From: Candidatus Pacearchaeota archaeon
GTDB lineage: Archaea; Nanobdellota; Nanobdellia; Pacearchaeales; GW2011-AR1
DNA length: 64,000 nucleotides
Direction of reading: 5' to 3'
Assembly (NCBI GenBank): GCA_017609205.1
Contig: JAFCEL010000001.1
Span: 86,183-150,182 of the forward strand
How positions within the stretch are numbered: the stretch's first letter is position 1; every line of letters starts with the position of its first letter. A program made the position numbers and the translations under genes. Below are positions 788 to 56,098 of the stretch, one piece after another. Below the pieces are notes generated by a model. It was not told where the DNA came from and searched no databases. It worked only from the letters and a program-made list of their open reading frames with translations.

Positions 788-829
788 AGATAAAAAAACA
801 AAAGAGGTTTTTAAGATATTTGCTATTTT

Positions 830-1408
830 TTAAGCAACCCTCTCTAATTGGTTTCTGATTTGCTTAGACCATTCTATGAGTAATTTTTTCATAGAGGTTC
901 TGTAAAGATAATTATATTCTGGTTTGGACATTCGTCTTTCTTCTATTTTGATTTGTAATTGAGCGACATGGTCATGTATAATTCCAGCAATATCCCAAAA
1001 GGGATCTGAATAGTCTGGATCATGAAATCTTGCTGCTTTGCTAATCTTTCTATAAACTGAATCTAAACTTCTTGTTCCATCAACAGGACAAACTTCTGAA
1101 TTTCTCTCATTACTATTGTAAATTCGGAGCTCAGTATCAGACATAGAATTTAATCTCTCTAGATTATTGAAAATTATTTTTCCTAATCGTATATTTCTCT
1201 CTGATTTTTGAACTGATTCAATCTGCTTGTCGAGATAATCTCTAATTCTTCCCATAACTGATAATAAAAAGAGTATTATTAAAAATATTGGTAATTTAGT
1301 ATATAAGTAATCCAAAAATTTAATATAACATATTGCGACTGCTGTTATACGCTCCTGACAGGGACGAAGATTGCAAAGCAATCCAAAAAGTTGGCGAAGG
1401 GACGCCAT
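830..1408 (-). CDS. hypothetical protein, probable N-terminal membrane anchor; start uncertain
   Basis: Long ORF. Its first ~30 codons lie in a G/C-rich, non-coding-looking patch (1325-1410). Likelier starts are TTG at 1315 or ATG at 1255. Confidence 0.45.
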   Translation of the reverse strand: MASLRQLFGLLCNLRPCQERITAVAICYIKFLDYLYTKLPIFLIILFLLSVMGRIRDYLDKQIESVQKSERNIRLGKIIFNNLERLNSMSDTELRIYNSNERNSEVCPVDGTRSLDSVYRKISKAARFHDPDYSDPFWDIAGIIHDHVAQLQIKIEERRMSKPEYNYLYRTSMKKLLIEWSKQIRNQLERVA

Positions 1409-1410
1409 GC

Positions 1411-1791
1411 TTATTTTCTTTTACGTTTGGAATACCAGTTGATAAAAATTATCCAATACATGAACAGCAATGCGACAATACTAATCCAGTATGGTTTTTC
1501 AAAAACTGGTTTTGGTAGTGTATTGAGATATGCTATTACACTTATTGTTACTATTACTGAGAGCATAGCAACAACAATTTTTCGCAGTTTGTCTTTTTCC
1601 ATTTTTGTTACCTCATTTGTTTTACTTTGATATAATTTGTATGCAGCCAATACGGCAAGGAAAACAATAGCCAATCCTGCAGAAATTTTTGGGTCAAGCA
1701 TTGCTGAAAGCAACACGAAGAAAACTGCTAAGATGGCAATTATACCTTCTGTTTTATTACTCATACTCATTTTATATTTATAATCTTTCAT
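1411..1791 (-). CDS. small integral membrane protein
   Basis: Three long hydrophobic segments in the translation and a basic C-terminal tail (SKRKRK). Confidence 0.55.
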   Translation of the reverse strand: MKDYKYKMSMSNKTEGIIAILAVFFVLLSAMLDPKISAGLAIVFLAVLAAYKLYQSKTNEVTKMEKDKLRKIVVAMLSVIVTISVIAYLNTLPKPVFEKPYWISIVALLFMYWIIFINWYSKRKRK

Positions 1792-2365
1792 TTTTCACTG
1801 CATAAATTGTCAAATGTTGTTCTGGTAAAAAATTGAATTCCTTTTCCAACAAATAACCTGCCTCTCCCATTTCTTGAATGATAGTTTCCTTAGGAATATA
1901 GTGTCCAAATAATCCACGGAAAGTGAAAATTTTACCTTTTTTATACTCAATGATAGCAATTCTCCCATCAGGTTTTAAAAATCGTTTTAGTTTCTTAAAA
2001 TACTCTACTCGATTTGGTATGTGATGGGTGACATTACGCATGAATATCAAATCTAAGCTTTTTTCAGGTAAATCTAATTTATCTCGTGATACAAGCGTTG
2101 GTATAACATTATTCAATCCTTTTTCTTTGGCATTGTTTTTAAGATACTCTAAAAATTCTGGCTTTGTATCAATAGCATAAACTCTTCCTCCTTCCCCCAC
2201 CATTTCGGCAAATCGCAGTGAAAAATAACCCCCTCCTGAACCAATATCTGCAATACTTTGACTAGGTTTTAATGCAATAGCTTCTATAATCTGGTCTGGC
2301 TTGTTTTTAGGGTCAGAAGCTTTTTTATTGAATATCTTAGCTTGAAAGTTTGCCATTTTCCTCAT
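1778..2365 (-). CDS. class I SAM-dependent methyltransferase
   Basis: Motif I DIGSGGGYF followed by the acidic loop YAIDT. Confidence 0.8.
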   Translation of the reverse strand: MRKMANFQAKIFNKKASDPKNKPDQIIEAIALKPSQSIADIGSGGGYFSLRFAEMVGEGGRVYAIDTKPEFLEYLKNNAKEKGLNNVIPTLVSRDKLDLPEKSLDLIFMRNVTHHIPNRVEYFKKLKRFLKPDGRIAIIEYKKGKIFTFRGLFGHYIPKETIIQEMGEAGYLLEKEFNFLPEQHLTIYAVKNERL

Positions 2366-2809
2366 TTCATAAATTAATTATTGTTTCTTTTAATATTTTT
2401 TTGTTTCAGGCATCCCGAAGCCGATTGCATAACATCGGGCTTAAAAGACCTGAGCATTGCGAAGGCTCGAAGTGATAAATTTTTTCCTCGAATTTGACCT
2501 TTGGAATGTAGCAAAGCGAAATGACGAGCGGAAAATTCAGAGCTGAAAAAATTTTGAACATTCGAGAGTTTTTCCGTAGGGAAAATTTGGGAAAACTCTG
2601 ACTTTTCCAAAAGATAACAAAGGAGTTTTCTTGTTAAAAGCTGTTCGCCGACCGACAAAGTCGGCACGAACTGACGCTACAGCGTCCTCGTGAATCACCG
2701 ATGAGTGGATGGTGGGTTGTTTGTCTAAAACCCAATGTATTTGAGAAATCGCCTTTTTTGCTTCTTTTTTTAAAAAGAAGATGGGGTTCCACTTTTTTGA
2801 TTTTTCAAA
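2366..2809. repeat. G/C-enriched non-coding island A (member of a 4-copy family)
   Basis: No credible ORF. Contains AATTTGGGAAAA (2584-2595) with a downstream TTTTCC partner, CCTCGTGAAT (2686-2695) and GGATGG (2707-2712). Has a terminal hairpin CTTCTTTTT/AAAAAGAAG followed by GGGGTTCCAC (2783-2792). Confidence 0.6.
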
Positions 2810-3057
2810 TTAATCCTTTCTTAGATATTCTAAACCTTTTTCAGTTATTTTTATCTGGAAATATGGTTTGCCACTTTTAGGATGTTTTTCTTTACTTTCT
2901 ATTTTAAGAAAACCATAAGATTCTAATTCTTTACAATTAGACCTTATAGTATTAAAACCAGTATTAACTTTTCTCTCAAGTTGAGCCAATGTCATAGGCG
3001 AAGATTTTATTAAACCTAAAATCTTCTTTTTATATCAAATGAGCTACGCTTGGACAT
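2810..3057 (-). pseudogene. winged-helix DNA-binding protein split by a 1-nt frameshift in a homopolymer run
   Basis: ATG at 3055-3057 reads MSKRSSFDIK and then stops. Adding one base to the T5 run at 3027-3031 fuses it to KKILGLIKSSPMTLAQLERKV... of ORF 2810..2995, giving an 82-aa wHTH-like protein. Confidence 0.5.
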
Positions 3058-3115
3058 ACTACAATAAAAGAGTAAGTCTTAAATATCCCAACTCATAATA
3101 TTATAGTAAGCTAAA

Positions 3116-4252
3116 ATGTCTCAAAAAGAAAATAAAAAATCAAGAAAGAAATTATGGTTGTGGATACTATCAATTATATTTATTGTTGGAGGAATGAGCA
3201 CTTTATCAGATTCTTTTTTTGCAGGAGTCTTTGCATTTGTGGCGGGTGCAATAATTTGTCCTCCAATTATTAATATTATTAAAGAAAAATCAGAGGGTAA
3301 AGCAAAAACTTGGATATTTGTAACTGCTTTTATTGTCTTAGTGTCTTTTAGTGGAATGGCTCTTCCAAATTCAGAGAATTTTCAAAAGGATATATCCTTG
3401 CCCTCAACAATAAACATTATCTCGGATGTTAACCTAACAATACCTGAAAATACAAAAGAAGCAATCTCTAAAACAGAAGTTTATAGATACTGGAGTAATA
3501 ATATAAATGATGGACAAAAAAAATTAACTCTTCTTCATTATAATAAAGAAAGATATGGAAAATTTCTGGAATATTTAGACTCACAAAATCTTAAAGAAGA
3601 TTTTAAAAGATTGTGTGGTAACGAATTAGTGCCTAAAGACATGCTTGTTTCTAATGAAAGGGGTCTCTTTCTCCATATTGGATTAGATGATGGATTTGCT
3701 GTATGTGACTTTGTTTCTGAAGAAATAACTTCTGAATTTGAAAATCAAGAAAATACAACTCAAAAACAAGCCCAACAAAAATGTATCCCTAATTGGAAAT
3801 GCGGAAAATGGACAATCTGTTCTAACGAAGTTCAAACAAGAATATGCACAGATAAGAATGATTGTGGAACCATTGAAGAAAAACCTATTGAAACCCAAAA
3901 TTGTAAAGATTATGATTTAGAGATGAGTATAGACGAACTATTAAATGAGTTTAGCGGATTAACAAAACTTCAGCAAGAAGAAAAAATTAAAGAATTAAAA
4001 GGTAAAAGAATAAAAACATCAACAACGGCTTATAAAATAGACAAAGCCTCACTTTCTACACAATATGTAGTTATGGATGATGATTATCTCTATCCATCTG
4101 TAAAAGCTTTCTTTCCTGCTGAAGAAAAAGATAAACTTCTAAAAGTAAATATTGGGGATAAGATAACATTCATCGGCGAGTTTGTTACATATAAACAAGG
4201 AACATATGTGCCTAGTTATGTTGAATTTACAAAGTCAAAATTGGTAGGTTAG
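3116..4252 (+). CDS. membrane-anchored protein with an extracellular Cys-rich module
   Basis: N-terminal hydrophobic helices. Contains the motif CIPNWKCGKWTICSNEVQTRICTDKNDCG. Confidence 0.6.
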   Translation: MSQKENKKSRKKLWLWILSIIFIVGGMSTLSDSFFAGVFAFVAGAIICPPIINIIKEKSEGKAKTWIFVTAFIVLVSFSGMALPNSENFQKDISLPSTINIISDVNLTIPENTKEAISKTEVYRYWSNNINDGQKKLTLLHYNKERYGKFLEYLDSQNLKEDFKRLCGNELVPKDMLVSNERGLFLHIGLDDGFAVCDFVSEEITSEFENQENTTQKQAQQKCIPNWKCGKWTICSNEVQTRICTDKNDCGTIEEKPIETQNCKDYDLEMSIDELLNEFSGLTKLQQEEKIKELKGKRIKTSTTAYKIDKASLSTQYVVMDDDYLYPSVKAFFPAEEKDKLLKVNIGDKITFIGEFVTYKQGTYVPSYVEFTKSKLVG

Positions 4253-4259
4253 ATATTAA

Positions 4260-4613
4260 ATGAAATTTGGTATTTCTGAAGAAGATGAGTTAAATATCCT
4301 AAAGGATTGGAGAGATAATTATTCTTATTCAAAAGTCCCTAAAAATCTTCAGAAAAAAGTTAAAGACCAACAGGCAGTAAATTTGTTAATGGAATTTACC
4401 AAAGATTCAGAGATTGATTATCAAAGAATTAGTAATAGGATAAAAGAACTTGAAGATAAAATTCAAAAAGAAAATCAAAAAGAAAAAGAGCAGAGTTTTT
4501 GGTATATTCTCAAAAAAGAATTTAAAGAAAAAGCTGCAAAGGCGATTGTTTGGGTTGTTATGAGTATTATTGGATTTATTCTAGGATTTTTAGTTAGTTA
4601 TTTCTTGAAATAA
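4260..4613 (+). CDS. hypothetical tail-anchored protein
   Basis: Charged coiled-coil-like body and a single C-terminal hydrophobic helix. It lies 7 nt after the upstream gene. Confidence 0.5.
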   Translation: MKFGISEEDELNILKDWRDNYSYSKVPKNLQKKVKDQQAVNLLMEFTKDSEIDYQRISNRIKELEDKIQKENQKEKEQSFWYILKKEFKEKAAKAIVWVVMSIIGFILGFLVSYFLK

Positions 4614-4980
4614 TGGAACCCCCAAAAAGTAATATCCGAAAAATTTGCGTGAGCTTTGTGAACCTCTTAACCTTTATTATACGAAATTTTAATTTCGTGA
4701 GTTTCTCCTAGGTCGGTTAAGAGAAGTAAATCCGAAGGATTTATTTCCCGAACTTTTCCTCGTGAGTGAAGAATGAACGAACAGGGCTGAAAAGTGAGGG
4801 CGTAGCGAACTGCAAGTGAGCAGAGTTTTAATCGCTGTTAGTAGAGTTTTTTCGCAGAAAAAACCGAGCCAGAATGCAATGTCCCGAAGGGCTGGCGAAG
4901 AGTAAAAATCAATTTTCAGGGAGGAATTTATTATCTTGCGTTCGCGATAAATTAATAAGTAAGATTTTCATATTAAAATT
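4614..4980. repeat. G/C-enriched non-coding island B
   Basis: Starts TGGAACCCC, the reverse complement of the island A terminus GGGGTTCCA. Contains CCTCGTGAGT (4758-4767). Hairpins include CGAAATT-tta-AATTTCG, AAATCC-gaa-GGATTT and CTCTTAACC...GGTTAAGAG. Confidence 0.6.
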
Positions 4981-5433
4981 ATGCAATTAAGAAAAGCAAC
5001 AGAACAGGACAAAAAAGAGGCAATAAAAATTGCACAAGATTTGAAAGAATGGTTTAATAAAGAAGGAATTAGAAATATGAAAACCGACTTCAAATTTAAC
5101 AATTTGGTCGTGATGAGAAATAAAGGCAAAGTTTCTGGATTTTTATGCTACACAACTAATTGCGGAAAAATGCAACTTATATGGATGGGTGTTGAAAAAG
5201 ATATGCAACAAAAAGGAATTGGAAAAAAACTTCTGAGATGGCTAGAAAAAGAAGCTAAAAAATATAAGTTGCATTCAATTGAAGTTGAAACTTTGCCTGA
5301 TGAAGATGATTACGAACCATACAAAAAAACTCGAGCTTTTTATTATAAAAATGGTTTCAAAAGAATATTATATAAAAAAGCGAGAGTTAAAGGGTGGGAT
5401 GACCAAATTGTTCTGGAGAAAAGAATAAAGTAA
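4981..5433 (+). CDS. GNAT-family N-acetyltransferase
   Basis: Acetyl-CoA-binding motif QQKGIGKKLLRWLEKEA and a size typical of GNAT proteins. Confidence 0.85.
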   Translation: MQLRKATEQDKKEAIKIAQDLKEWFNKEGIRNMKTDFKFNNLVVMRNKGKVSGFLCYTTNCGKMQLIWMGVEKDMQQKGIGKKLLRWLEKEAKKYKLHSIEVETLPDEDDYEPYKKTRAFYYKNGFKRILYKKARVKGWDDQIVLEKRIK

Positions 5434-5798
5434 GCGAGCTTTATCTTGGGTGGGCAAGAAAATTGATTTTTATTTCTACTAACATATGCGATTAAGCGAC
5501 CCGTAGGGCTCGAGCGGAACGGAGTGACCTCGAGAGTTCAAAATCTTTGATTTTGAATTTGGGAAAATTATGGCTTTTAAGAAAAAAGTGAGCGAATGCT
5601 AAAATAATTTTCCGCTTAATCTGCTGTTGCTTGACCGAACGAAGTGAGGCACGAGCTGGGCTAAAAAAAGCCCCTCGTGAGTTTTAATTTTTCTTTTCAG
5701 GTTGGGGGAGGAGGATGGTTTCTCCGACGACAAAAAAATTAGAGAGATTGCCCGCTCGTTTTTTGCTTCTTCTTTTCTAAAAAAGAAATTTGGGCACT
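5434..5798. repeat. G/C-enriched non-coding island C
   Basis: Contains GCGATTAAG (5488-5496), the CTCGAG-loop-CTCGAG hairpin, AATTTGGGAAAA (5556-5567), CCTCGTGAGT (5673-5682) and GGATGG (5713-5718). Has a terminal hairpin plus TTTGGGCAC. Confidence 0.6.
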
Positions 5799-5810
5799 TT
5801 ATCTTTGTTT
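5783..5810. repeat. left arm of an imperfect inverted repeat flanking the RiPP-like operon
   Basis: AAGAAATTTGGGCACTTTATCTTTGTTT. Its reverse complement matches 8298-8327 (14-nt exact core AAAGATAAAGTGCC, one mismatch, one 4-nt indel, then AAATTTCTT). Confidence 0.55.
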
Positions 5811-6464
5811 TAGATACTCAATACATTTTTTTAAAAGTTTTTCAAAATCTCTTTCTTTTTTCCATTTTTTTGAAATATAATTTCTCAGATTTCTCGTTTG
5901 TAAATATCCGACATCCTTAGCAAACCATAAATCTCTAAACTCCAAATTAAGCAAAACTGTTAAAGATTCATTAAGAAAGTTAAATTTGTCATCACCAAGG
6001 AGCCCCCTTAATCTATTCCCATAAGAATTATCAACATGAATATGAAACAACTCATGCCCACAAGTTCTTACTGCCTGTAGCAAAGGACGTTTCAATGAAA
6101 CTGTAAAAGAATTATCTTCATAATAAGCACATCTCCCAACAGTAGTAATGTAAGCGTCAAAATTTTCTAAAGAAATTTGCTTATTTGTAATCTTTTCTAA
6201 CCTATTAAAATACTCATCATTAATACTTTTCCAAGATTTATCCAAAGACTCTCTAAAAAATTCTATGTATGGGGATACATGCAATCTTTCTAAATTTTCC
6301 AATATTTCTCTTTTTGAATCCAAAAAAGATTTTCCTTTAAATGCCCGTATATAATTTGAGTTTAAATCTGTCTTCTCATCTTTCCAAGAACATTCATAAT
6401 TACATAATTGCCAAAAATTTAATGCATCTCTTTCCTTATCAAATTTAAAATTAAGCTTGCTCAT
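5799..6464 (-). CDS. HExxH-motif protein, putative zinc metallopeptidase
   Basis: CGHELFHIH motif. Last gene of the four-gene overlapping operon. Confidence 0.55.
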   Translation of the reverse strand: MSKLNFKFDKERDALNFWQLCNYECSWKDEKTDLNSNYIRAFKGKSFLDSKREILENLERLHVSPYIEFFRESLDKSWKSINDEYFNRLEKITNKQISLENFDAYITTVGRCAYYEDNSFTVSLKRPLLQAVRTCGHELFHIHVDNSYGNRLRGLLGDDKFNFLNESLTVLLNLEFRDLWFAKDVGYLQTRNLRNYISKKWKKERDFEKLLKKCIEYLKQR

Positions 6465-6984
6465 TTTTTAAAATTAAGAATATTAAATTATGTTTATGTG
6501 GAAGAAGATTTGAATGTTCTTCTATTTCTGTTTCACCTTGTAATTCTTTTTCTAATTTCCACCCTTCGTAAAAAGATAATATTTCTTCTTTTGTGGGAAA
6601 AAATTTCCCCTTACTTTTCATGCTATCTAAATTAGACATACAAATAATAAGGTTATATCCTCCATGTGAAGTTGAAGTTTTCATCTTTTCAAATAATTTG
6701 TGAATTTTATCTTTGTTGAAAAAATGCAAGATTAAAGAGGCAATTATTAAATCATTATCTTTTCCAAAATCTTCTGTTGTTATATCCCCCGATATAAATT
6801 CAAAATTTTTAAAGGCACCATCTTCAAAAGCATTCCTTTTATCAATTCCTTTCGCACTTATTCCTTTTCTGCTAAAAAATAAAGACATTAAACCTTTTCC
6901 GCATCCTAGATCCAAGACCTTTTTCAATTCTTTATTTTGAAAAAAATTCAAAAATTCACTTTTACTTTGTTTTATGTTTATCAT
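6451..6984 (-). CDS. class I SAM-dependent methyltransferase
   Basis: Motif I VLDLGCGKGLMS. Overlaps both neighbours. Confidence 0.75.
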   Translation of the reverse strand: MINIKQSKSEFLNFFQNKELKKVLDLGCGKGLMSLFFSRKGISAKGIDKRNAFEDGAFKNFEFISGDITTEDFGKDNDLIIASLILHFFNKDKIHKLFEKMKTSTSHGGYNLIICMSNLDSMKSKGKFFPTKEEILSFYEGWKLEKELQGETEIEEHSNLLPHKHNLIFLILKNEQA

Positions 6985-8065
6985 TTTCTAGATATTCCTT
7001 AAAGCACATTGGGTCTTTTGTCATATAATCCCTTGTTATTGCATAAGCTACTGCTCTGCATCCTCTGCAATGAACAACTTTGTCACATAAAGATTTTTCC
7101 CTTATTTTATTTAAATCTCTTAAATCTTGCATAACTTCACTTTCTAAAACTAAATTTCTAAAGCCTTCTTTAATGTTTCCTATAGGAATTGGGAGTCTTC
7201 TGCAAGGATACACTGTTCCATCAGAAAGAACGGAAAGCATTCTAAATCCTGCAGAACATCCACATAAATAAGTATTATTCTCTTTTGATTTTTTGATTAA
7301 ATCATTTTCTCCGTTTTGAAAAATTTGCCATAAAACATCGGATTGCAAAACAGTTATTTTTCCTTTATATTTTTCTACTAAACTATTTGTCTTTTTTAAC
7401 ATTTCATAAACCTCAAAGGAATTGACAAATTTAGGATCTTTCGCTCCCAATTTAGAATCTGGGACATAAGTTTTGAATCCGACTTTTTTAGCACCTGCAA
7501 GATAAGAGTTTTCAATTACTTCTTCAAATTCATCCATGTTTTGCTTCATTAAAGTCATTGCAGAAACAACAGAAATTCCTTCTCTTGAGGCATTACTTAT
7601 TCCTTCCATTGCTTTATCATAAGCGAATTTTCTTCCTCTTATTTTATTGTGAGTTTCTTTTGTTCCATCAATAGAAATTTGAATAGTATCAATTCCTCTC
7701 TCTTTAATTTCTTTTGCTTTTATAGGAGTAATTAATGTTCCATTTGTTAATAAATTAGTAATAACTTCTTGTTTTTGAGTATAATCAAAAATTTTTAGAT
7801 GATCCTTTCTCATTAAAGGTTCTCCCCCTGAGATTGCTATCCTTGGAATCATATCCCATCTTTCTGCAGTTTCTTTTAAATCATCTATCATTGAGAAAAC
7901 ATCTTCTAAACCCATAGGCTCTTTAAACTGTTTGTGGAATGAATTTCCTTCAGAACTATGATAACAATGAGAACACCTTAAATTACACCAATCTGTTGAG
8001 TCCCACTGCAAATAAAGATGTCTTTTTGCCATTTGTTGAAGAGGCAAATTTAATCTAAAAAACAA
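6962..8065 (-). CDS. radical SAM enzyme with C-terminal SPASM-type Cys cluster
   Basis: CNLRCSHCY (CX3CX2C) near the N-terminus. C-terminal CGCSAGF...DGTVYPC...GNI...CDKVVHCRGC...DPMC. The start may be the internal MAKRH at 8029. Confidence 0.9.
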   Translation of the reverse strand: MFFRLNLPLQQMAKRHLYLQWDSTDWCNLRCSHCYHSSEGNSFHKQFKEPMGLEDVFSMIDDLKETAERWDMIPRIAISGGEPLMRKDHLKIFDYTQKQEVITNLLTNGTLITPIKAKEIKERGIDTIQISIDGTKETHNKIRGRKFAYDKAMEGISNASREGISVVSAMTLMKQNMDEFEEVIENSYLAGAKKVGFKTYVPDSKLGAKDPKFVNSFEVYEMLKKTNSLVEKYKGKITVLQSDVLWQIFQNGENDLIKKSKENNTYLCGCSAGFRMLSVLSDGTVYPCRRLPIPIGNIKEGFRNLVLESEVMQDLRDLNKIREKSLCDKVVHCRGCRAVAYAITRDYMTKDPMCFKEYLENDKHKTK

Positions 8066-8256
8066 CCATCATCTGATGCACAAGCATCAGGACCACAAGC
8101 ATCACAAGGATCACAGTGATACTTATCTTTAGAAAGGTTGTATTTTTTCACCTCATCTCTTGGACCGTACTCTCTTACCTGATAAGGTAGGGGAGTCATA
8201 CCACTCAAAAAATCTACTTCTTTTGCTGTTAGCTCAAGTTTGTTTGATTTTTCCAT
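8050..8256 (-). CDS. candidate RiPP precursor peptide (68 aa)
   Basis: C-terminal HCDPCDACGPDACASDDGCFLD (5 Cys, 6 Asp) after a charged leader-like region. Its stop overlaps the radical SAM ORF. Confidence 0.6.
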   Translation of the reverse strand: MEKSNKLELTAKEVDFLSGMTPLPYQVREYGPRDEVKKYNLSKDKYHCDPCDACGPDACASDDGCFLD

Positions 8257-8673
8257 AAATCTTAAGAGTATTAAATCTTTTTAAGTTTTGTTATTGTAAA
8301 AAGATAAAGTGCCTAAATAAATTTCTTGCGTAGCAAGCTTATTTGTTTTTCTGAAAAAAACTAAGCGCACACCTCCTATCTGGGGCGGGTGGTCGGGGGA
8401 TGGCAAAAGACAATTTTATCATTCTTGAAAAATTATATTTAGCAAAGAACAAAGAAAGATTGGTGATTTATCCAAGCGAAAGCGAAGATAGATTTCAATT
8501 TGGACGCAGTCTGGGAACATCGCGATTAAGAGAAGTTTGCGGAACGAAGTGGAGCAAATTTGGGAAAATGCCGAGCTGAGTGTTTTTCCGTTTAAGCCCT
8601 GTTAAACTCCCCGAGCGTTAGCGAGAACGCAGCGTGGTCGAGGAGCGAAGCGACGCAGAATTTTCATATTTCA
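8257..8673. repeat. G/C-enriched non-coding island D
   Basis: Contains GGATGG (8398-8403), GCGATTAAG (8522-8530), the hairpin TTTGC-GGAACGAAGTGGA-GCAAA, AATTTGGGAAAA (8557-8568) and a GCGAAG-rich tail. Confidence 0.6.
8298..8327. repeat. right arm of the inverted repeat flanking the RiPP-like operon
   Basis: AAAAAGATAAAGTGCCTAAATAAATTTCTT. See 5783-5810. Confidence 0.55.
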
Positions 8674-9126
8674 TCATGGGTAATCCTTTAATCCCAAATA
8701 TTTAAATGATGAAAAATTATTTTCTTTGTCTATATTTAATTGTGATATTAATTCCTTAGGATAAAAAGTGACTTTGTCTAAATTTTCTAAATCTAATAGT
8801 TCGATGTCCTCAAGAAGAGCTTCTTTTTCTTCAGGATCAAAACCCTTTTTTAACTCCCCCCTATATTCCTCAACATAGAAATAAAATTCTATTCCCCTTC
8901 CTAGATCTTTATTTTTTAATTCTTTAATATAAACTAACTTTAATTTTAAAATGTCTAAATTTGTCTCTTCTTTTACTTCTCTTTTTATTGCTTCATAAAT
9001 GCCTTCTTCCATTTCTACTCCTCCACCAGGTAAAACATAATATGTAGATTCTTTTTTTGTCATTTTAGTAGTTAACAGCTTGCCATTATGTAGAATTATT
9101 GCAGCGACTCTTAAATTTGTTCTCAT
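8674..9126 (-). CDS. Nudix hydrolase
   Basis: Nudix box GGGVEMEEGIYEAIKREVKEETNL. Confidence 0.85.
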   Translation of the reverse strand: MRTNLRVAAIILHNGKLLTTKMTKKESTYYVLPGGGVEMEEGIYEAIKREVKEETNLDILKLKLVYIKELKNKDLGRGIEFYFYVEEYRGELKKGFDPEEKEALLEDIELLDLENLDKVTFYPKELISQLNIDKENNFSSFKYLGLKDYP

Positions 9127-9266
9127 TTTTCAAAATTTCTTATTTCATATTCGCAATTTAATTTTTTAAATTTCCAATCAGTATCCTATCTTTCATATTG
9201 CTAAGTAATCAAAATAATTTATAAACATTACAATTTGAAAATTAAGAAGTTATCTTCGAAAACAAG

Positions 9267-10085
9267 TCATTCCTCTAAGATCTCTGATTCTTCTTTTAAA
9301 TCCCTATAAGGATCTCCATTATGCTTCAAGAATGTTTCTTTTAACCAGATATGAATTTCACCAAAATGTTGATCCTGTTCAAGCCAGATTTTTTTTGAAT
9401 TTTCAAGATGAAGAAGCGGAGAAAAGGAAGCTATTTTCTCGTTTTTATCTCCTTTAACAAATTCTGTAAAGGAAACTTTAACATGATTCTTGTTCTTTCC
9501 AAAATAGAGAATAAGTGTTTTATGAATTGATTTGATTTTGTCCCTTATGCTGAATTTTTTCTTTGGAAGGGAAAATCCTGTTTCTCTAAGAGCATTTCTG
9601 TTTATGATTCTTTTTTTGATTCTGCGATTTTCTGTATTAATCGCCTTATTTAATGCTGCCATTAATTCCTTTAAGGTCACTCTTTTATAACGAGGGATTG
9701 GGCTTCTTAAGAGCAGTTCTGGAATTTCTTCTTCTAACTCAATTCTTTCCATTGAATATTTCTTTTCTTCTTTTTTCCCAAACAAAATTTCATCTATACT
9801 CTTAATATACTTATTAAGTAGAATTTCTGATTTTATCCTCAGAAGGAGAGACGCTGCCAGAAGAACTTTACTTGATATAAAAAAATCTGCTTCTTCATAT
9901 TCCTTTAGTTTTTCAAGATATTTATCAGACAGAACTATTATATTAACATCCCATGGGTTAAGTTGCTCTGTATTTATTAAGTCATAAATTATATCCTTCC
10001 ACCCAATCTCTCTGCTAAACAAAATCTTTTGTATTTGCTCTTGAGATACAGATTTTTTAATATCCTCTTTTGAAATATTCCTCAT
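9267..10085 (-). CDS. scpA: segregation and condensation protein A (kleisin)
   Basis: N-terminal NPWDVNIIVLSDKYLEKL...LLAASLLLRIKSEILL pattern. An ScpB gene is also present in the window. Confidence 0.7.
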   Translation of the reverse strand: MRNISKEDIKKSVSQEQIQKILFSREIGWKDIIYDLINTEQLNPWDVNIIVLSDKYLEKLKEYEEADFFISSKVLLAASLLLRIKSEILLNKYIKSIDEILFGKKEEKKYSMERIELEEEIPELLLRSPIPRYKRVTLKELMAALNKAINTENRRIKKRIINRNALRETGFSLPKKKFSIRDKIKSIHKTLILYFGKNKNHVKVSFTEFVKGDKNEKIASFSPLLHLENSKKIWLEQDQHFGEIHIWLKETFLKHNGDPYRDLKEESEILEE

Positions 10086-31177: not shown

Positions 31178-32299
31178 ATGAATAATAGGATTTTAATAAT
31201 TTTGATTGGAATGATTGTTTTGACAAGCCTTGTATCTGCAGATTCATGCAGAATAATTAAAAAAAGTGAATGTAACGGGATTGTTCTTTTTGCAGTATCT
31301 TCTCTTGGCGGTCATTCAGAACTTGCAGACCAAGGAAATTATGATTATGTTCTTTGCTGTAATTTCGGGCACAATGGTAAAACTTGCGATGGATCAAATA
31401 AGATTATTGGATTGGAAAGCGAGACAAATGCTCATGCTGAAATCCCATCTTATAATAGCTATGATAACTCTGTCTGTTACGAGGATTTAAGCTGCACAGA
31501 GAGAACAACCTGCAACTCAGATGAACTTCAACTTTTCTCATTATCAAATACAACAAATGCTCACGTAGGAAATTATGAATTGTTTGAAACAAAAATATGC
31601 TGTACATCTGATTTAATTGATTTGGATGGGGATGGTATCTTGAATATTCATGACCCAGATTATAATGGAGACGGAAGACCTGACAAGAGATACAAAAACA
31701 TTGATAAAAATGGGGATATTGACGGAGATGGTATTTTGAATATTCATGATGCAGACATGGATGGAGATGGTATCTTGAATGGACATGATCCTGACTTTGA
31801 CGGAGATAATAATATGGATGAGCCATACGAACATATATCTCCAAATGGGGATATTGACGGAGATGGTATTTTGAATATTCATGATGCAGACATGGATGGA
31901 GATGGTATCTTGAATGGTGATGATTTTGACGCTGATAACGATGGGGTTTTTGATTCCTCCTTTTGCGGTAATGGGGTTAAAGAAACTGACGAAGAATGTG
32001 ATGATGGAAATAATATAAATGGTGACGGCTGTTCTAATTTTTGTGTAAGGACTACAAGTAATGAAGATTCAGACGATGATGACAAAAAAGAAAAAGATAA
32101 AGACGATGGATTAGAAATTTATTATAAAAAAGATTCTACCAAACATCTTGACGAAGAATACCCTTCAACTTCGACAATTACTCTTGATTCAGAAAAAAGA
32201 ATTACAGAAATATCCCTTACAAAAACTCTTCCATTGCTATTCATTATGGGAATTGCCATACTCTTGATAATTATTTTAATTATTGCTTTAAGAAAATAA
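31178..32299 (+). CDS. secreted, C-terminally anchored Cys-rich protein with a TNAH-triplet N-domain and Ca-binding Asp-rich repeats
   Basis: Signal peptide. Three TNAH-type repeats. DGDGILNIHDxD thrombospondin-type-3-like repeats. CGNGVKETDEECDDGNNINGDGCSNFC module. C-terminal TM helix. Confidence 0.75.
   Translation: MNNRILIILIGMIVLTSLVSADSCRIIKKSECNGIVLFAVSSLGGHSELADQGNYDYVLCCNFGHNGKTCDGSNKIIGLESETNAHAEIPSYNSYDNSVCYEDLSCTERTTCNSDELQLFSLSNTTNAHVGNYELFETKICCTSDLIDLDGDGILNIHDPDYNGDGRPDKRYKNIDKNGDIDGDGILNIHDADMDGDGILNGHDPDFDGDNNMDEPYEHISPNGDIDGDGILNIHDADMDGDGILNGDDFDADNDGVFDSSFCGNGVKETDEECDDGNNINGDGCSNFCVRTTSNEDSDDDDKKEKDKDDGLEIYYKKDSTKHLDEEYPSTSTITLDSEKRITEISLTKTLPLLFIMGIAILLIIILIIALRK
31708..31917 (+). 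repeat. two perfect 75-bp direct copies (31708-31782 and 31843-31917) inside the CDS
   Basis: Both copies read AAATGGGGATATTGACGGAGATGGTATTTTGAATATTCATGATGCAGACATGGATGGAGATGGTATCTTGAATGG. Period is 135 bp. Confidence 0.9.
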
Positions 32300-32367
32300 A
32301 AAATTAGTTCAAGATATATTCTTACTTCTAGGATTATAACAAGACTAAAGGTTTAAATAGTTCTAAT

Positions 32368-32645
32368 GGGGGATTGTAATGTAGACCAGGTCGGCGGGTT
32401 AGCCCTCCGCCAATTGCAAATGGGCTTTAGGCAGACTGCAAGGAAGTCGGTGATAGGAGCGTTGGAGAAGTCTTTGTTCGGACGTTGACGTTTTGTCCTT
32501 CTCGACCTTGCAGATGCGAACTGGGTCAGGCCTTGACCGGAGCAGCCCTAAACATTTGTTAAGGTGCTTGAAGGGTAGCAGAACCGAGGAAGAACAGAGG
32601 TAGCTTTTTCAACTATCCTTGAGCTGGCTTTCGGGTCTACACTAA
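32368..32645 (+). ncRNA. signal recognition particle RNA (archaeal 7S)
   Basis: G/C-rich island. 5' TGTAAT Alu-domain motif. GGGTCAGGCC...CCGGAGCAGCC S-domain-like motif. 5' GTAGACC pairs with 3' GGTCTAC. TTTAAATA box upstream. Ends are approximate. Confidence 0.7.
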
Positions 32646-32681
32646 CGAATAATTAATAAATCCTCTTAGCTAAGTCATTTT

Positions 32682-44574: not shown

Positions 44575-45456
44575 ATGGAATCAAAGGAGTCAGGGGGATT
44601 GTTAACAAAACCTCTTATTCTTATAGGCATTATTTTTATTTCTGCAATTGCAGTCAGTGCTTATATAAGCAATCAAAAACATAATTCTGGGAATATTTTA
44701 ATGAATGTTAATGGCCATAAAATGACATTGAAGGAGGCAATTGAAAACAATTTTATTTCTAAAGAAGCAACTCCAGATAAAGATTATACTACCTCGGTTT
44801 TAGTGGGTCATAATGCAAATGAGATTTGGGTTTCTGTCGACGGTAATGAGTCTACATTAGAACAAGCCATCAATGGTGCAGGTCTGTGTGGAAGTTCTAT
44901 TATTACATCTTATTCAAATCCAAAACCAAACCCAGGACATTATGCAGATGAAGTCGAGATTACTATTAATGGGGACACAAAAACATTGCAACAGGCAATT
45001 GACGATGGGGATTTTTGTAATAATTTTGTAAAAGATTGCAAAGCAGATGGCGGCGAAATTGCAGATTGTGGAGGAACTCTGTGTTGTAAATTTAGTGGTA
45101 GTTCTTGTCCAACAGGTCTTGGATGGATTTCAAATGGTTGGAGTGAAAGTTCTGCTCAAACGGTATGTGGATTAGCTAACGTTTATCCAAGTTGCACAAA
45201 ATTCACAGGTAGTTGTCCTACAAGTTGTTGCACAACTAGTTATCATACATGGAGTCATACTATGGTTAGAGAATATTGTTATGCAAGTGGGATGGCAAAA
45301 GGAAATTTACCAAATTGTTGTGAATGCAGTGGTTGTTCGAGTTCTCCTTACAGCTGTGGGGGCGACTGTCATGATGGCACCGCAATTTATCAATGTTGTT
45401 CAGGAACCTTAAGATTAAGTAATAAGCTAGTAAATGTCGGTTGCATAAAATCTTAA
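44575..45456 (+). CDS. membrane-anchored surface protein: triple TLxxAI module plus variable Cys-rich C-domain (paralog of 55253..56098)
   Basis: N-terminal anchor. Contains MTLKEAIE, STLEQAING and KTLQQAIDDGDFC. The C-terminal half has many Cys. Confidence 0.7.
   Translation: MESKESGGLLTKPLILIGIIFISAIAVSAYISNQKHNSGNILMNVNGHKMTLKEAIENNFISKEATPDKDYTTSVLVGHNANEIWVSVDGNESTLEQAINGAGLCGSSIITSYSNPKPNPGHYADEVEITINGDTKTLQQAIDDGDFCNNFVKDCKADGGEIADCGGTLCCKFSGSSCPTGLGWISNGWSESSAQTVCGLANVYPSCTKFTGSCPTSCCTTSYHTWSHTMVREYCYASGMAKGNLPNCCECSGCSSSPYSCGGDCHDGTAIYQCCSGTLRLSNKLVNVGCIKS
44908..45017. repeat. 110-bp near-identical inverted repeat, copy 1
   Basis: 109/110 identical to the reverse complement of 55659-55768. 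Encodes SYSNPKPNPGHYADEVEITINGDTKTLQQAIDDGDF. Confidence 0.9.
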
Positions 45457-55252: not shown

Positions 55253-56098
55253 TTATAATTTGCAAAGTACAACACCAGGTCCTCCAGTTATAGGGTCTCT
55301 TAAACAAGCACCACTACTACTTGTGCAAACATAAGAGGAGGGGGTTTCCCAATAACAGCCAACACATAATTGGGCATCTGTTCCAAAATTATCTTGGCAA
55401 CATTGTTGCCCTGTAATTCCAATACAATCCTCCATATATACACATTGGTAATTATATGTACAATCTTGTGTTTTTGAACAAACTCCTCCACAAAAACTAC
55501 AATCAACATTCTCTACAAATGTTCCATCCAAATACTTTCCACAAGTTCTAGTAATTGTTTGAGTTCTTCCAGATTCCAAGTTCTGACAATAACCACACTG
55601 GCTTCTTGTATTATAATTCCAATCAGAATATTGATAAGTGTAAGTATAAACAGGCTGGCAAAAATCCCCATCGTCAATTGCCTGTTGCAATGTTTTTGTG
55701 TCTCCATTAATAGTAATCTCGACTTCATCTGCATAATGTCCTGGGTTTGGTTTTGGATTTGAATAAGAAGTTGTGGGTGTGCTTCCGCATAGATTATTTG
55801 ATGCAATTGCATCTGCTAAAGTCATTTCATTTCCATCAACAGAAACCCAAATCTCATCAGGATTATGTCCAAAACTAACAGAAGTTGTTCCAGAGCTTGT
55901 CGGTGCACTTGCATTTACCCTTAAATAATCTCCTTCAATTGCTTCCTTTAAAGTCATTGTTTTTCCATCGATGTTAACAAGAATATCGCTTGAAGAATGT
56001 TTTTTTCCATAAATCCCTGCGTAAATAATCATTAATGTAAAAACTATGCTAAGAAGAAATGCAGCAACTATTCTCAGTTTTTCTGTCTCTAACTTCAT
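55253..56098 (-). CDS. membrane-anchored surface protein: triple TLxxAI module plus variable Cys-rich C-domain (paralog of 44575..45456)
   Basis: Contains MTLKEAIE, MTLADAIA and KTLQQAIDDGDFC. The C-terminal domain is unrelated to that of its paralog. Confidence 0.7.
   Translation of the reverse strand: MKLETEKLRIVAAFLLSIVFTLMIIYAGIYGKKHSSSDILVNIDGKTMTLKEAIEGDYLRVNASAPTSSGTTSVSFGHNPDEIWVSVDGNEMTLADAIASNNLCGSTPTTSYSNPKPNPGHYADEVEITINGDTKTLQQAIDDGDFCQPVYTYTYQYSDWNYNTRSQCGYCQNLESGRTQTITRTCGKYLDGTFVENVDCSFCGGVCSKTQDCTYNYQCVYMEDCIGITGQQCCQDNFGTDAQLCVGCYWETPSSYVCTSSSGACLRDPITGGPGVVLCKL
55659..55768. repeat. 110-bp near-identical inverted repeat, copy 2
   Basis: Reverse complement of 44908-45017 with one synonymous difference (GGA vs GGG Gly). 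Confidence 0.9.

Follow-up and report, generated by a model that had tools for sequence, protein, structure and literature searches.

Ordered pairs of structured non-coding modules bracket variable gene cassettes, usually near xerA, in Pacearchaeota-type archaea

Integrons are tandem arrays of accessory cassettes beside a tyrosine-recombinase gene; their boundary elements fold as single strands of conserved structure, the repeats at the cassette ends co-vary, and strains differ in the cassettes that they carry. Archaeal integrons with canonical attC sites and IntI have been reported (PMC9668308). Integrative mobile elements exploiting Xer (IMEX), such as the CTX and TLC phages and the gonococcal island, are without a recombinase of their own and pile up in tandem at the host Xer site, and the attachment site of CTX phage is a folded single strand (PMC5357621); according to the same review, some archaea possess a xerA/dif module. 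The pdif modules of Acinetobacter plasmids hold genes between inversely oriented Xer-type sites and are exchanged between replicons (10.1101/2024.04.09.588662). GOLLD, ROOL and HEARO/omega RNA are several hundred nt long, with multi-helix junctions and strong covariation, and occur in variable or mobile regions. Likenesses to all of these were found at a locus of a Candidatus Pacearchaeota archaeon and at its relatives. The stretch analysed, referred to here as the window, comprises 64,000 nt of contig JAFCEL010000001.1 (assembly GCA_017609205.1, positions 86,183 to 150,182, forward strand) and contains four G/C-rich islands, A (2366-2809), B (4614-4980), C (5434-5798) and D (8257-8673). The islands are copies and mosaics of two module types, T1 and T2, and belong to a type of recombinase-associated cassette array whose building blocks are two new families of structured non-coding elements. 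As in integrons, a strain-variable cassette array next to a recombinase gene was found; full-text literature searches found no description of such a system, and the modules and their proximity to xerA point to an undescribed integron-like means of gene capture.

Related genomes and metagenomes yielded many further copies of the island sequences. In about 1 Mb of sequence from 80 genomes of relatives, a single locus (L045, from a genome assembly) gave a significant match, 76% identical to island C over 152 nt (E 1e-19) and adjoining an unrelated IscU-like gene. The stem of an inner hairpin is fully compensated between the two, with GGGCT/AGCCC in island C and GAAAC/GTTTC in L045. Blocks common to A, C and L045 were combined into a search pattern, GCACGARCTG N8-20 CCTCGTGA N10-40 GGATGG, which matched 63 metagenome loci. 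Sixteen of these were chance matches in G/C-rich coding DNA (about 7 had been expected by a hand estimate made beforehand) and about 47 were near-identical elements in AT-rich DNA. The same T1 core pattern had no match in viral contigs, and blastn of 2366-8673 found none in plasmid and phage collections.

Anchored comparison and profile searches then separated the modules, and in place of the one family of four islands proposed from a sequence-only reading of the window there are two module types plus mosaics. T1, of about 350 nt, begins AACATCGCGATTAAAC and ends in AAAAAGAAAATGAGGGGTTCTTA; T2, of about 260 nt, begins TAAGAACCCCTCAAAGTAAATGAAAAATTTGGGTG and ends in GCTGGGAACAT. The order T1, variable segment (0.18-4.8 kb), T2 was seen on a single strand in 33 cassettes from about 26 distinct loci, and the next T1 often stands directly 3' of T2. 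The variable segments hold unrelated genes on either strand, among them small membrane proteins, winged helix-turn-helix (wHTH) regulators, a restriction-modification system (L086), a nuclease-like gene (L089) and, in the window, an operon resembling those for ribosomally synthesized and post-translationally modified peptides (RiPP). Truncated and mosaic module copies are many, and metagenome contigs frequently break at the element. G-tracts are conserved in both modules (GGGTGGGGGAGGAGGATGG in T1, for example at window 5702-5718, and GGGGCGGGTGGTCGGGGG in T2, for example at window 8382-8403) and could form G-quadruplexes. The T1 word GGAGGAGG could mimic a Shine-Dalgarno sequence; a small open reading frame (ORF) after GGAGGAGGATGG was ruled out by a 4-nt indel between copies directly after its ATG.

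Single-sequence folds of every T1 5' domain gave one topology, a closing helix P1 around helices P2-P5, despite varied sequence and insert size. A covariance model of this domain, built from ten short variants (146 positions, 46 pairs), gave 98 matches. In the resulting alignment the share of pairing cells is 94.1% (72.4% in shuffles), changes on both sides occur in 44 of the 46 pairs, and covariation scores 0.349, where shuffles give 0.120 and slid partners no more than 0.10; these figures lean high because the alignment is fitted to the model and contains some weak, low-scoring rows. Raw MAFFT alignment and RNAalifold on whole T1 units, with their large indels, gave only 30 pairs, of which 11 are already compensated. 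Covariation in the T1 5' domain is accordingly strong, which removes the lack of covariation by which the sequence-only reading might have fallen. Since G-U cells outnumber A-C cells (225 vs 35) and, in 78 of 78 copies, folding is better for the + strand than for its complement, the fold belongs to one strand. For T2, 46 pairs were predicted, 16 of them with compensatory change. The modules thus show what is generally expected of structured RNA, a conserved one-strand secondary structure with compensatory changes, and a TATA-like box and T-runs can be read from the sequence as possible signs of transcription. Rfam scans of the window and of canonical copies, at gathering and at permissive thresholds, gave no family match (best scores 17-26 bits against cut-offs of 34-70), in agreement with the sequence-only reading, which had recognised no known RNA class. 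A box C/D sRNA was rejected, the one sR17 match being weak (E 2.1) and proper box C or D motifs being absent. Remnants of group I or II introns (compare PMC6125680) were likewise rejected: there was no Rfam intron match, and the cargo is multi-gene and on either strand.

T1 ends in a sequence that is the reverse complement of the T2 start, the usual pair being TGAGGGGTTCTTA / TAAGAACCCCTCA. The resulting inverted repeats at the cassette flanks are 9-19 nt long, G-rich and matched in subtype at both ends of a cassette; they were found with anchored windows, an automatic inverted-repeat search having been swamped by A/T matches. Rare subtypes co-occur at both ends, as with GGGGCACTTTTA (L088/L122), GGGGTGTTCC (L102), TTGGGGTTCCGTT (L130) and AGATGGGGGC (L124), and in the window the matched subtypes are GGGGTTCCA for A/B and GGCACTTTATCTTT for C/D. 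Where the left repeat is unusual, the right repeat of the same cassette matches it over 10 nt or more in 7 of 14 cases, while foreign right repeats match so well in 9%. The two ends of a T2-T1 composite, by comparison, carry differing repeat subtypes. Some T1 copies have tandem left repeats, TGAGGGGTTCTTA, a hairpin and GGGGTTCCGTTA (L085 3324-3360; L120 4254-4285), which look as if they were the trace of a cassette lost from between them.

Clustering of all neighbouring ORFs revealed one recurrent protein family, a tyrosine recombinase of 267-282 aa with Pfam Phage_integrase and SAM-like domains; no recombinase gene was found within the cassettes. The protein passes the NCBIfam XerA cut-off (240.9 vs 220) and falls below the cut-offs for integron integrases (TIGR02249, 208.6 vs 265; NF011946, 124.3 vs 435). 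Its close homologues number more than 4,900, mostly on Pacearchaeota-type contigs, and it is therefore probably the ordinary XerA of the host. The xerA start lies about 60-115 nt past the last T2, on the same strand, in six loci and about 900 nt past it in a seventh, that is, in 7 of the roughly 12 loci with enough downstream sequence. When loci were picked solely via XerA homologues, all eight informative ones carried modules at most 10 kb upstream, in the orientation of xerA. The last T2 ends GGGAACAY, and 2-5 nt further on a palindrome of 11-13, 6 and 11-13 nt (for example CGGATATTAACC-TTTTTT-AGGTTATATATCC), presumed to be dif, is followed by the xerA start codon. A TATA-like TTTTAAAT stands 23 nt before AACAT in T2. 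At its start, CGCGATTAAAC, T1 is similar to the left palindrome arm, and no complete second dif-like site was found. In L154, an 88-kb contig from metagenome 3300033141, as is the window contig, xerA is preceded by AACAC and the palindrome ATGGATATGGAAG-TTTTTT-AGAATTTACATATCCAT; T2 and T1 modules lie 0.8-1.7 kb upstream of xerA and a HinfI-type restriction-modification pair further upstream. This may be the xerA locus of the same organism as the window or of a related one.

Comparison across strains and species, a check that the sequence-only reading had proposed, showed that the cassettes between modules are gained and lost. L148 and L149 share the same XerA and have flanks 99.6-99.99% identical, whereas the approximately 7 kb from the start of the first T1 (AACATCGGGATTAA) to the AACAT before the palindrome is unrelated between them. 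L138 has the same cassettes as L127 in another order, and its T1 is chimeric, joining a 5' part from one of the L127 copies to a 3' part from the second; the permutation and the chimera together indicate homologous recombination between modules. About 50 loci of relatives have both scpA and dph6, and in the about 40 listed the match starts are 0.8-2.7 kb apart; in the window these genes are separated by a block of 8.5 kb (788-9266). Ten of the 12 block genes had no match in 80 loci of relatives, and the other three matches were weak (23-39% identity). Between T2 copies, nucleotide identity is 93-98%, whereas XerA proteins encoded beside them can share as little as 38-45% (L135 compared with the other six); the modules are therefore taken to spread horizontally. 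A sister contig from another sample (L002, 99.5% identical to the window) is without 20 nt of island A in the T1 3' domain (2738-2757) and without 45 nt at the 3' end of a 221-aa gene (window 5873-5917).

Within the window, the islands stand out by composition. G+C averages 31.7% over the 64 kb (mean 0.317), 200-nt windows inside A, B, C and D peak at 0.41-0.475, and besides the regions of tRNA and signal recognition particle (SRP) RNA the four islands are the only long G/C-rich gaps between ORFs; windowed G+C and a Pfam scan thus bear out intervals that are richer in G/C than their surroundings and hold no credible ORFs. The words that they had been said to share are present: the 12-mer AATTTGGGAAAA at 2584, 5556 and 8557, CCTCGTGA at 2686, 4758 and 5673, GCGATTAAG at 5488 and 8522, GGAACGRAGTG at 5516 and 8541, and G-runs ending in GGATGG in A, C and D. 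Nineteen 10-mers are common to at least two islands, against a mean of 4.3 (maximum 13) in dinucleotide shuffles, and one 12-mer is common to at least three, against none. A and C, described as collinear over about 230 nt, align over 234 nt with 61% identity. In terms of modules, A and C are complete T1 copies, B together with 5434-5480 (the first 47 nt of C) is T2, and D is indeed a mosaic, with a minimal T1 5' domain behind a diverged T2. The accessory block that the islands had been thought to partition is real and larger than supposed, running from 788 to 9266 between dph6 (119-787) and scpA (9267-10085) and including a fifth relic. Two of the three cassettes claimed, the wHTH/membrane set and the RiPP-like operon, are bracketed by modules; the third, a GNAT gene, lies inside a T2.

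All module parts and repeats described in this and the following paragraph, and the GNAT gene, are on the + strand. Island A begins with a T1 5' domain at 2431-2645, a long variant in which the closing helix P1 is weakened (nhmmer T1a E 2.4e-21; 39.5 bits with model R1; supported by the fold). Its 3' domain, at 2648-2807 (nhmmer T1b E 2.5e-23; pattern match 2664-2712), contains a core hairpin GCACGAACTG..CCTCGTGA (2664-2693), a G-tract and an A/T hairpin. The inversion of the terminal module between A and B, as first described, is seen in the left repeat of cassette 1, GGGGTTCCA at 2783-2791, which is the reverse complement of TGGAACCCC at 4614-4622; the full right repeat, TGGAACCCCC (4614-4623), starts one base past the stop codon of the last cassette gene. 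Cassette 1 itself (2808-4613) encodes a wHTH protein (2810-2995, minus strand) and membrane proteins of 378 aa (3116-4252) and 117 aa (4260-4613). Island B opens with the 5' part of T2 at 4615-4727 (profile positions 40-154, nhmmer T2 E 7.7e-18), where CCTCTTAACC / GGTTAAGAG forms a helix and blastn matches the T2 copies of about 20 loci. The hairpin-rich remainder, 4728-4980, has CCTCGTGAG at 4758 and TTTTAATCGCTGTT, a T1-like 3' strand of P1, and gave no significant match to the T1 or T2 profiles with nhmmer. The GNAT acetyltransferase gene (4981-5433, Pfam match) follows, and then the 3' part of T2 at 5441-5480 (TTATCTTGGGTGGGCAAGAAAAT..., profile positions 212-234, E 0.0096), up to the AACAT junction. 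Since T2 profile positions 40-154 precede the gene and 212-234 follow it, the GNAT gene is an insertion within T2.

Island C contains the canonical T1 5' domain, a five-helix junction P1-P5, at 5481-5628 (156.7 bits with model R1, E 2e-43; supported by the fold). Its 3' domain (5630-5820; nhmmer T1b E 2.3e-40; 76% identical to L045) has a core hairpin from 5649, the G-tract GGGGGAGGAGGATGG, whose last base is 5718, and an A/T hairpin that resembles a terminator. The inverted terminal module of C and D is represented by the left repeat of cassette 2, TTTGGGCACTTTATCTTT at 5789-5806, which overlaps the stop codon of the 221-aa gene, and the right repeat, AAAGATAAAGTGCCTAAA at 8300-8317, which matches its reverse complement at 17 of 18 positions. 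Cassette 2 (5799-8256, minus strand) is the RiPP-like operon. Its genes encode a 68-aa Cys-rich precursor, a radical SAM/SPASM enzyme, a TehB-like methyltransferase and a 221-aa HExxH protein, the last with a weak SprT-like match. In island D, the T2-like part at 8318-8515 ends in TCTGGG before AACAT and gave no significant T2 profile match with nhmmer; its G-tract GGGGCGGGTGGTCGGGGGATGG (8382-8403) is identical to that in the T2 copies of L083, L102 and L120. A minimal T1 5' domain of P1, one hairpin and P5 follows at 8516-8603 (18.1 bits with model R1, E 6e-4 in 12 kb), and the tail, 8604-8673, consists of G/C-rich hairpins including GCGAAGC (GC 0.475). A 59-aa gene of the source annotation (8400-8579) falls entirely within island D; having no family match and overlapping the minimal T1 domain, it is probably spurious. 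The fifth relic, mini-island E (1327-1410), joins AACATATTGCGA to CTGCTGTT, followed by the hairpins GATTGC-AAA-GCAATC and GGCG-AAGGGA-CGCC, and is a probable T1 relic assigned with low confidence, the T1 model giving a weak match only (1329-1346, 6.1 bits, E 1.5). The first 50 or so codons of an ORF at 830-1408 overlap mini-island E, and the real start is probably further downstream. The window array is best explained as lying at a secondary site between dph6 and scpA and as partly decayed, with E and D as relics and B split by GNAT.

The sequence-only reading had left a choice between structured RNAs and the boundaries of gene cassettes. Since the modules are invariably found on either side of variable cassettes, and the arrays adjoin a gene for a tyrosine recombinase, the boundary alternative is the better supported, and a structured single strand is supported as well. 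With rather more confidence than doubt, the islands are read as the non-coding end-modules of cassette-carrying integrative units of Pacearchaeota/Woesearchaeota-type DPANN archaea, moved by Xer-type recombination and shuffled by homologous recombination. A unit would consist of AACAT, T1, an inverted repeat, one to five accessory genes on either strand, the matching inverted repeat, T2 and AACAY. Units would stack head to tail, the last T2 typically abutting the dif-like palindrome directly upstream of host xerA, and the XerA-type recombinase may insert and excise them, with either the AACAY/dif-like junction or the cassette repeats as its site. T2 may be a copy of the xerA upstream region, TATA-like box included, and as such a copy it is proposed to restore the xerA control region at each insertion and to drive the next T1. 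T1 itself would be transcribed, giving a structured RNA of about 330 nt that is terminated by the T-rich hairpin of T1 and acts as an insulator of the cassette. More speculatively, and considerably less probably, the T2-T1 pair might serve the housekeeping XerA as a giant folded element, about 600 nt long, for attachment or guidance, either a structure-specific site of single-stranded DNA (ssDNA) or an RNA that directs or licenses recombination, and so form an archaeal, Xer-based counterpart of integrons that evolved independently of IntI/attC.

Several points weigh against end-modules of Xer-moved units. The palindromes next to xerA vary between genomes and are only presumed to be dif, dif of the Thermococcales does not adjoin xerA (PMC2958812), and tblastn of XerA against the 64-kb window found no xerA there. 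Neither recombination products nor circular forms or empty sites were observed, and the phase of the mobile unit could be T1-cassette-T2 or a cassette plus T2-T1. Inverted as they are, the cassette repeats would in double-stranded DNA bring about inversion and not excision. We know of no tyrosine recombinase that needs an RNA. Transcription of T1 is inferred solely from the TATA-like box and T-runs, and the alignment behind the covariation figures was fitted to the model, with some rows of low score.

The fold could also be that of DNA. T1 and T2 would then be structure-specific Xer recombination sites of folded ssDNA, like attC bottom strands and CTX attP, and the cassette repeats would close the site by pairing. 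Besides the strand-specific fold itself, this account is favoured by the loops, mostly C-GNA-G triloops (GAA, GTA), a classic motif of very stable DNA mini-hairpins, by the position of the modules exactly at cassette boundaries and beside a tyrosine-recombinase gene, and by the co-variation of repeat subtype across the cassette, as between R' and R'' in integrons. Moreover, the arms of the palindrome next to xerA (GGATATTAACC / GGTTATATATCC) have counterparts of similar sequence in P1 of T1 (CGCGATTAAAC / GTTTAATCTGC) and in the long T2 helix (CTCTTAACC / GGTTAAGAG). However, the conserved G-U positions (74 of 91 sequences at one pair) and the 225 G-U cells are more typical of RNA, the T-rich terminator-like tails and the TATA-like box suit a transcript, sites of about 600 nt far exceed any known folded recombination site, and no source of ssDNA, whether conjugation or rolling-circle replication, can be seen at the loci. 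Folded DNA sites are a possible but minority explanation. Less probable still are stand-alone genes for structured non-coding RNAs, a new large class carried on variable islands with a function unrelated to recombination and only an incidental position at the boundaries. Strong covariation on one strand, G/C enrichment within an AT-rich genome, T-rich ends and the lack of an Rfam match would all suit such RNAs, and GOLLD and ROOL are large bacterial RNAs likewise carried on mobile DNA. They would leave unexplained the constant order of T1, cassette and T2, the matched inverted repeats around cassettes, the AACAY junction with the palindrome and xerA, and the many truncated or mosaic copies.

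A transposon like a miniature inverted-repeat transposable element (MITE), with the T2-T1 composite inserting repeatedly between genes and the "cassettes" being host genes caught between insertions, would account for elements that are multi-copy, highly conserved and non-coding, that have short inverted terminal motifs, and at which contigs break as they do at repeats. This was rejected as very improbable: the terminal motifs of T2-T1 are of different subtypes, as in L083, L138 and L127, and match across the cassette instead, all copies within an array have a single orientation, no target-site duplication was seen, the intervening genes are absent from relatives and differ between strains, and no transposase recurs among the neighbouring genes. 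Clustering of neighbouring proteins also brought up no recurrent transposase of the REP/BIME (repetitive extragenic palindrome, bacterial interspersed mosaic element) or IS200/IS605 type, for which no dedicated whole-genome search was made. The remaining account, in which the islands would be coding sequence in decay or else the usual untranslated, terminator or leader regions of the genes beside them, is already contradicted and can be given next to no weight. It draws on the position of A and C directly past stop codons, with ends like terminator hairpins, and on island ORFs of 40-97 aa. None of ten island ORFs matched Pfam, and homologues of the modules differ by indels that are not multiples of three, such as the 4-nt TTGT directly 3' of GGATGG; for these two reasons the islands are taken to be non-coding, and the decayed coding sequence that the sequence-only reading had named as its own counter-explanation was not found. 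In addition, the same modules stand beside unrelated genes in about 47 loci, and the covariation fits helices, not codons.

Other features of the window and its relatives were recorded. The window is identified as archaeal by a ribosomal/transcription gene cluster (S27ae, S24e, Spt4, Rpo7) and a thermosome gene, and its nearest relatives in the genome scan, with Rpo7 identities of 70-80%, are labelled Pacearchaeota, Woesearchaeota or Nanoarchaeota. Two records titled Bacillota and Omnitrophota (L025 and L034) encode an archaeal Rpo7 about 75% identical to that of the window and are probably mis-binned contigs. The G/C-richest stretch of the window (32300-32681, 0.55) includes 97 nt (32489-32585) that barely reach the bacterial small-SRP model (40.8 vs 40); a full archaeal SRP RNA, to which this model is poorly suited, is the probable identity of the stretch. 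Tandem Asp/Gly-rich coding repeats at 31619-31944, with offsets alternating between 96 and 39 nt (135 together) and 68-87% identity, look like calcium-binding repeats of a surface protein. An inverted repeat of 135 nt (44883-45017 / 55659-55793, 91% identity, about 10.6 kb apart) is accompanied by a second pair of 83 nt.

DPANN archaea, with their tiny genomes, are dependent on hosts, and how they acquire and swap accessory genes is poorly understood. The array offers a concrete and widespread platform for this, in which conserved folded modules in fixed order bracket exchangeable cassettes and are tied to XerA, the recombinase of chromosome resolution; its cargo includes membrane and surface proteins, regulators, restriction-modification systems and a RiPP operon. 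The modules add two structured non-coding families with strong covariation, neither of them in Rfam, and could be used as markers of accessory islands and of assembly breakpoints in metagenome-assembled genomes of Pacearchaeota and Woesearchaeota.

The modules, as putative RNAs, differ from GOLLD, ROOL and HEARO/omega RNA in having no Rfam match, in forming an ordered pair around cargo and in having no associated nuclease gene. The pdif modules are bounded by 28-bp, 11-6-11 XerC/XerD sites, whereas the repeats described here are G-rich, 9-19 nt long and embedded in modules of 260-350 nt, and the host is an archaeon with a single XerA. The IMEX examples are bacterial and use XerCD, with direct dif-like flanks in contrast to the inverted cassette repeats seen here; long structured modules are the conserved flanks in the present arrays, for which integration at dif is only presumed. 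Inspection of the boundaries for attC boxes or core showed TGAGGGGTTCTTA, GGGGCACTTT and similar repeats and no GTTRRRY, and a classical integron attC was rejected, core motif and size being unfit and the recombinase lacking IntI scores. Unlike integrons, the arrays are associated with a XerA-like recombinase of 267-282 aa, under the IntI cut-offs, whose gene lies downstream of the array and in the same direction; the boundary is a two-module element of about 600 nt, where attC measures 55-140 nt, and cassettes hold one to several genes in either orientation. If XerA does use these folds, structure-directed site-specific recombination would extend past integrons and CTX phage into the Archaea.

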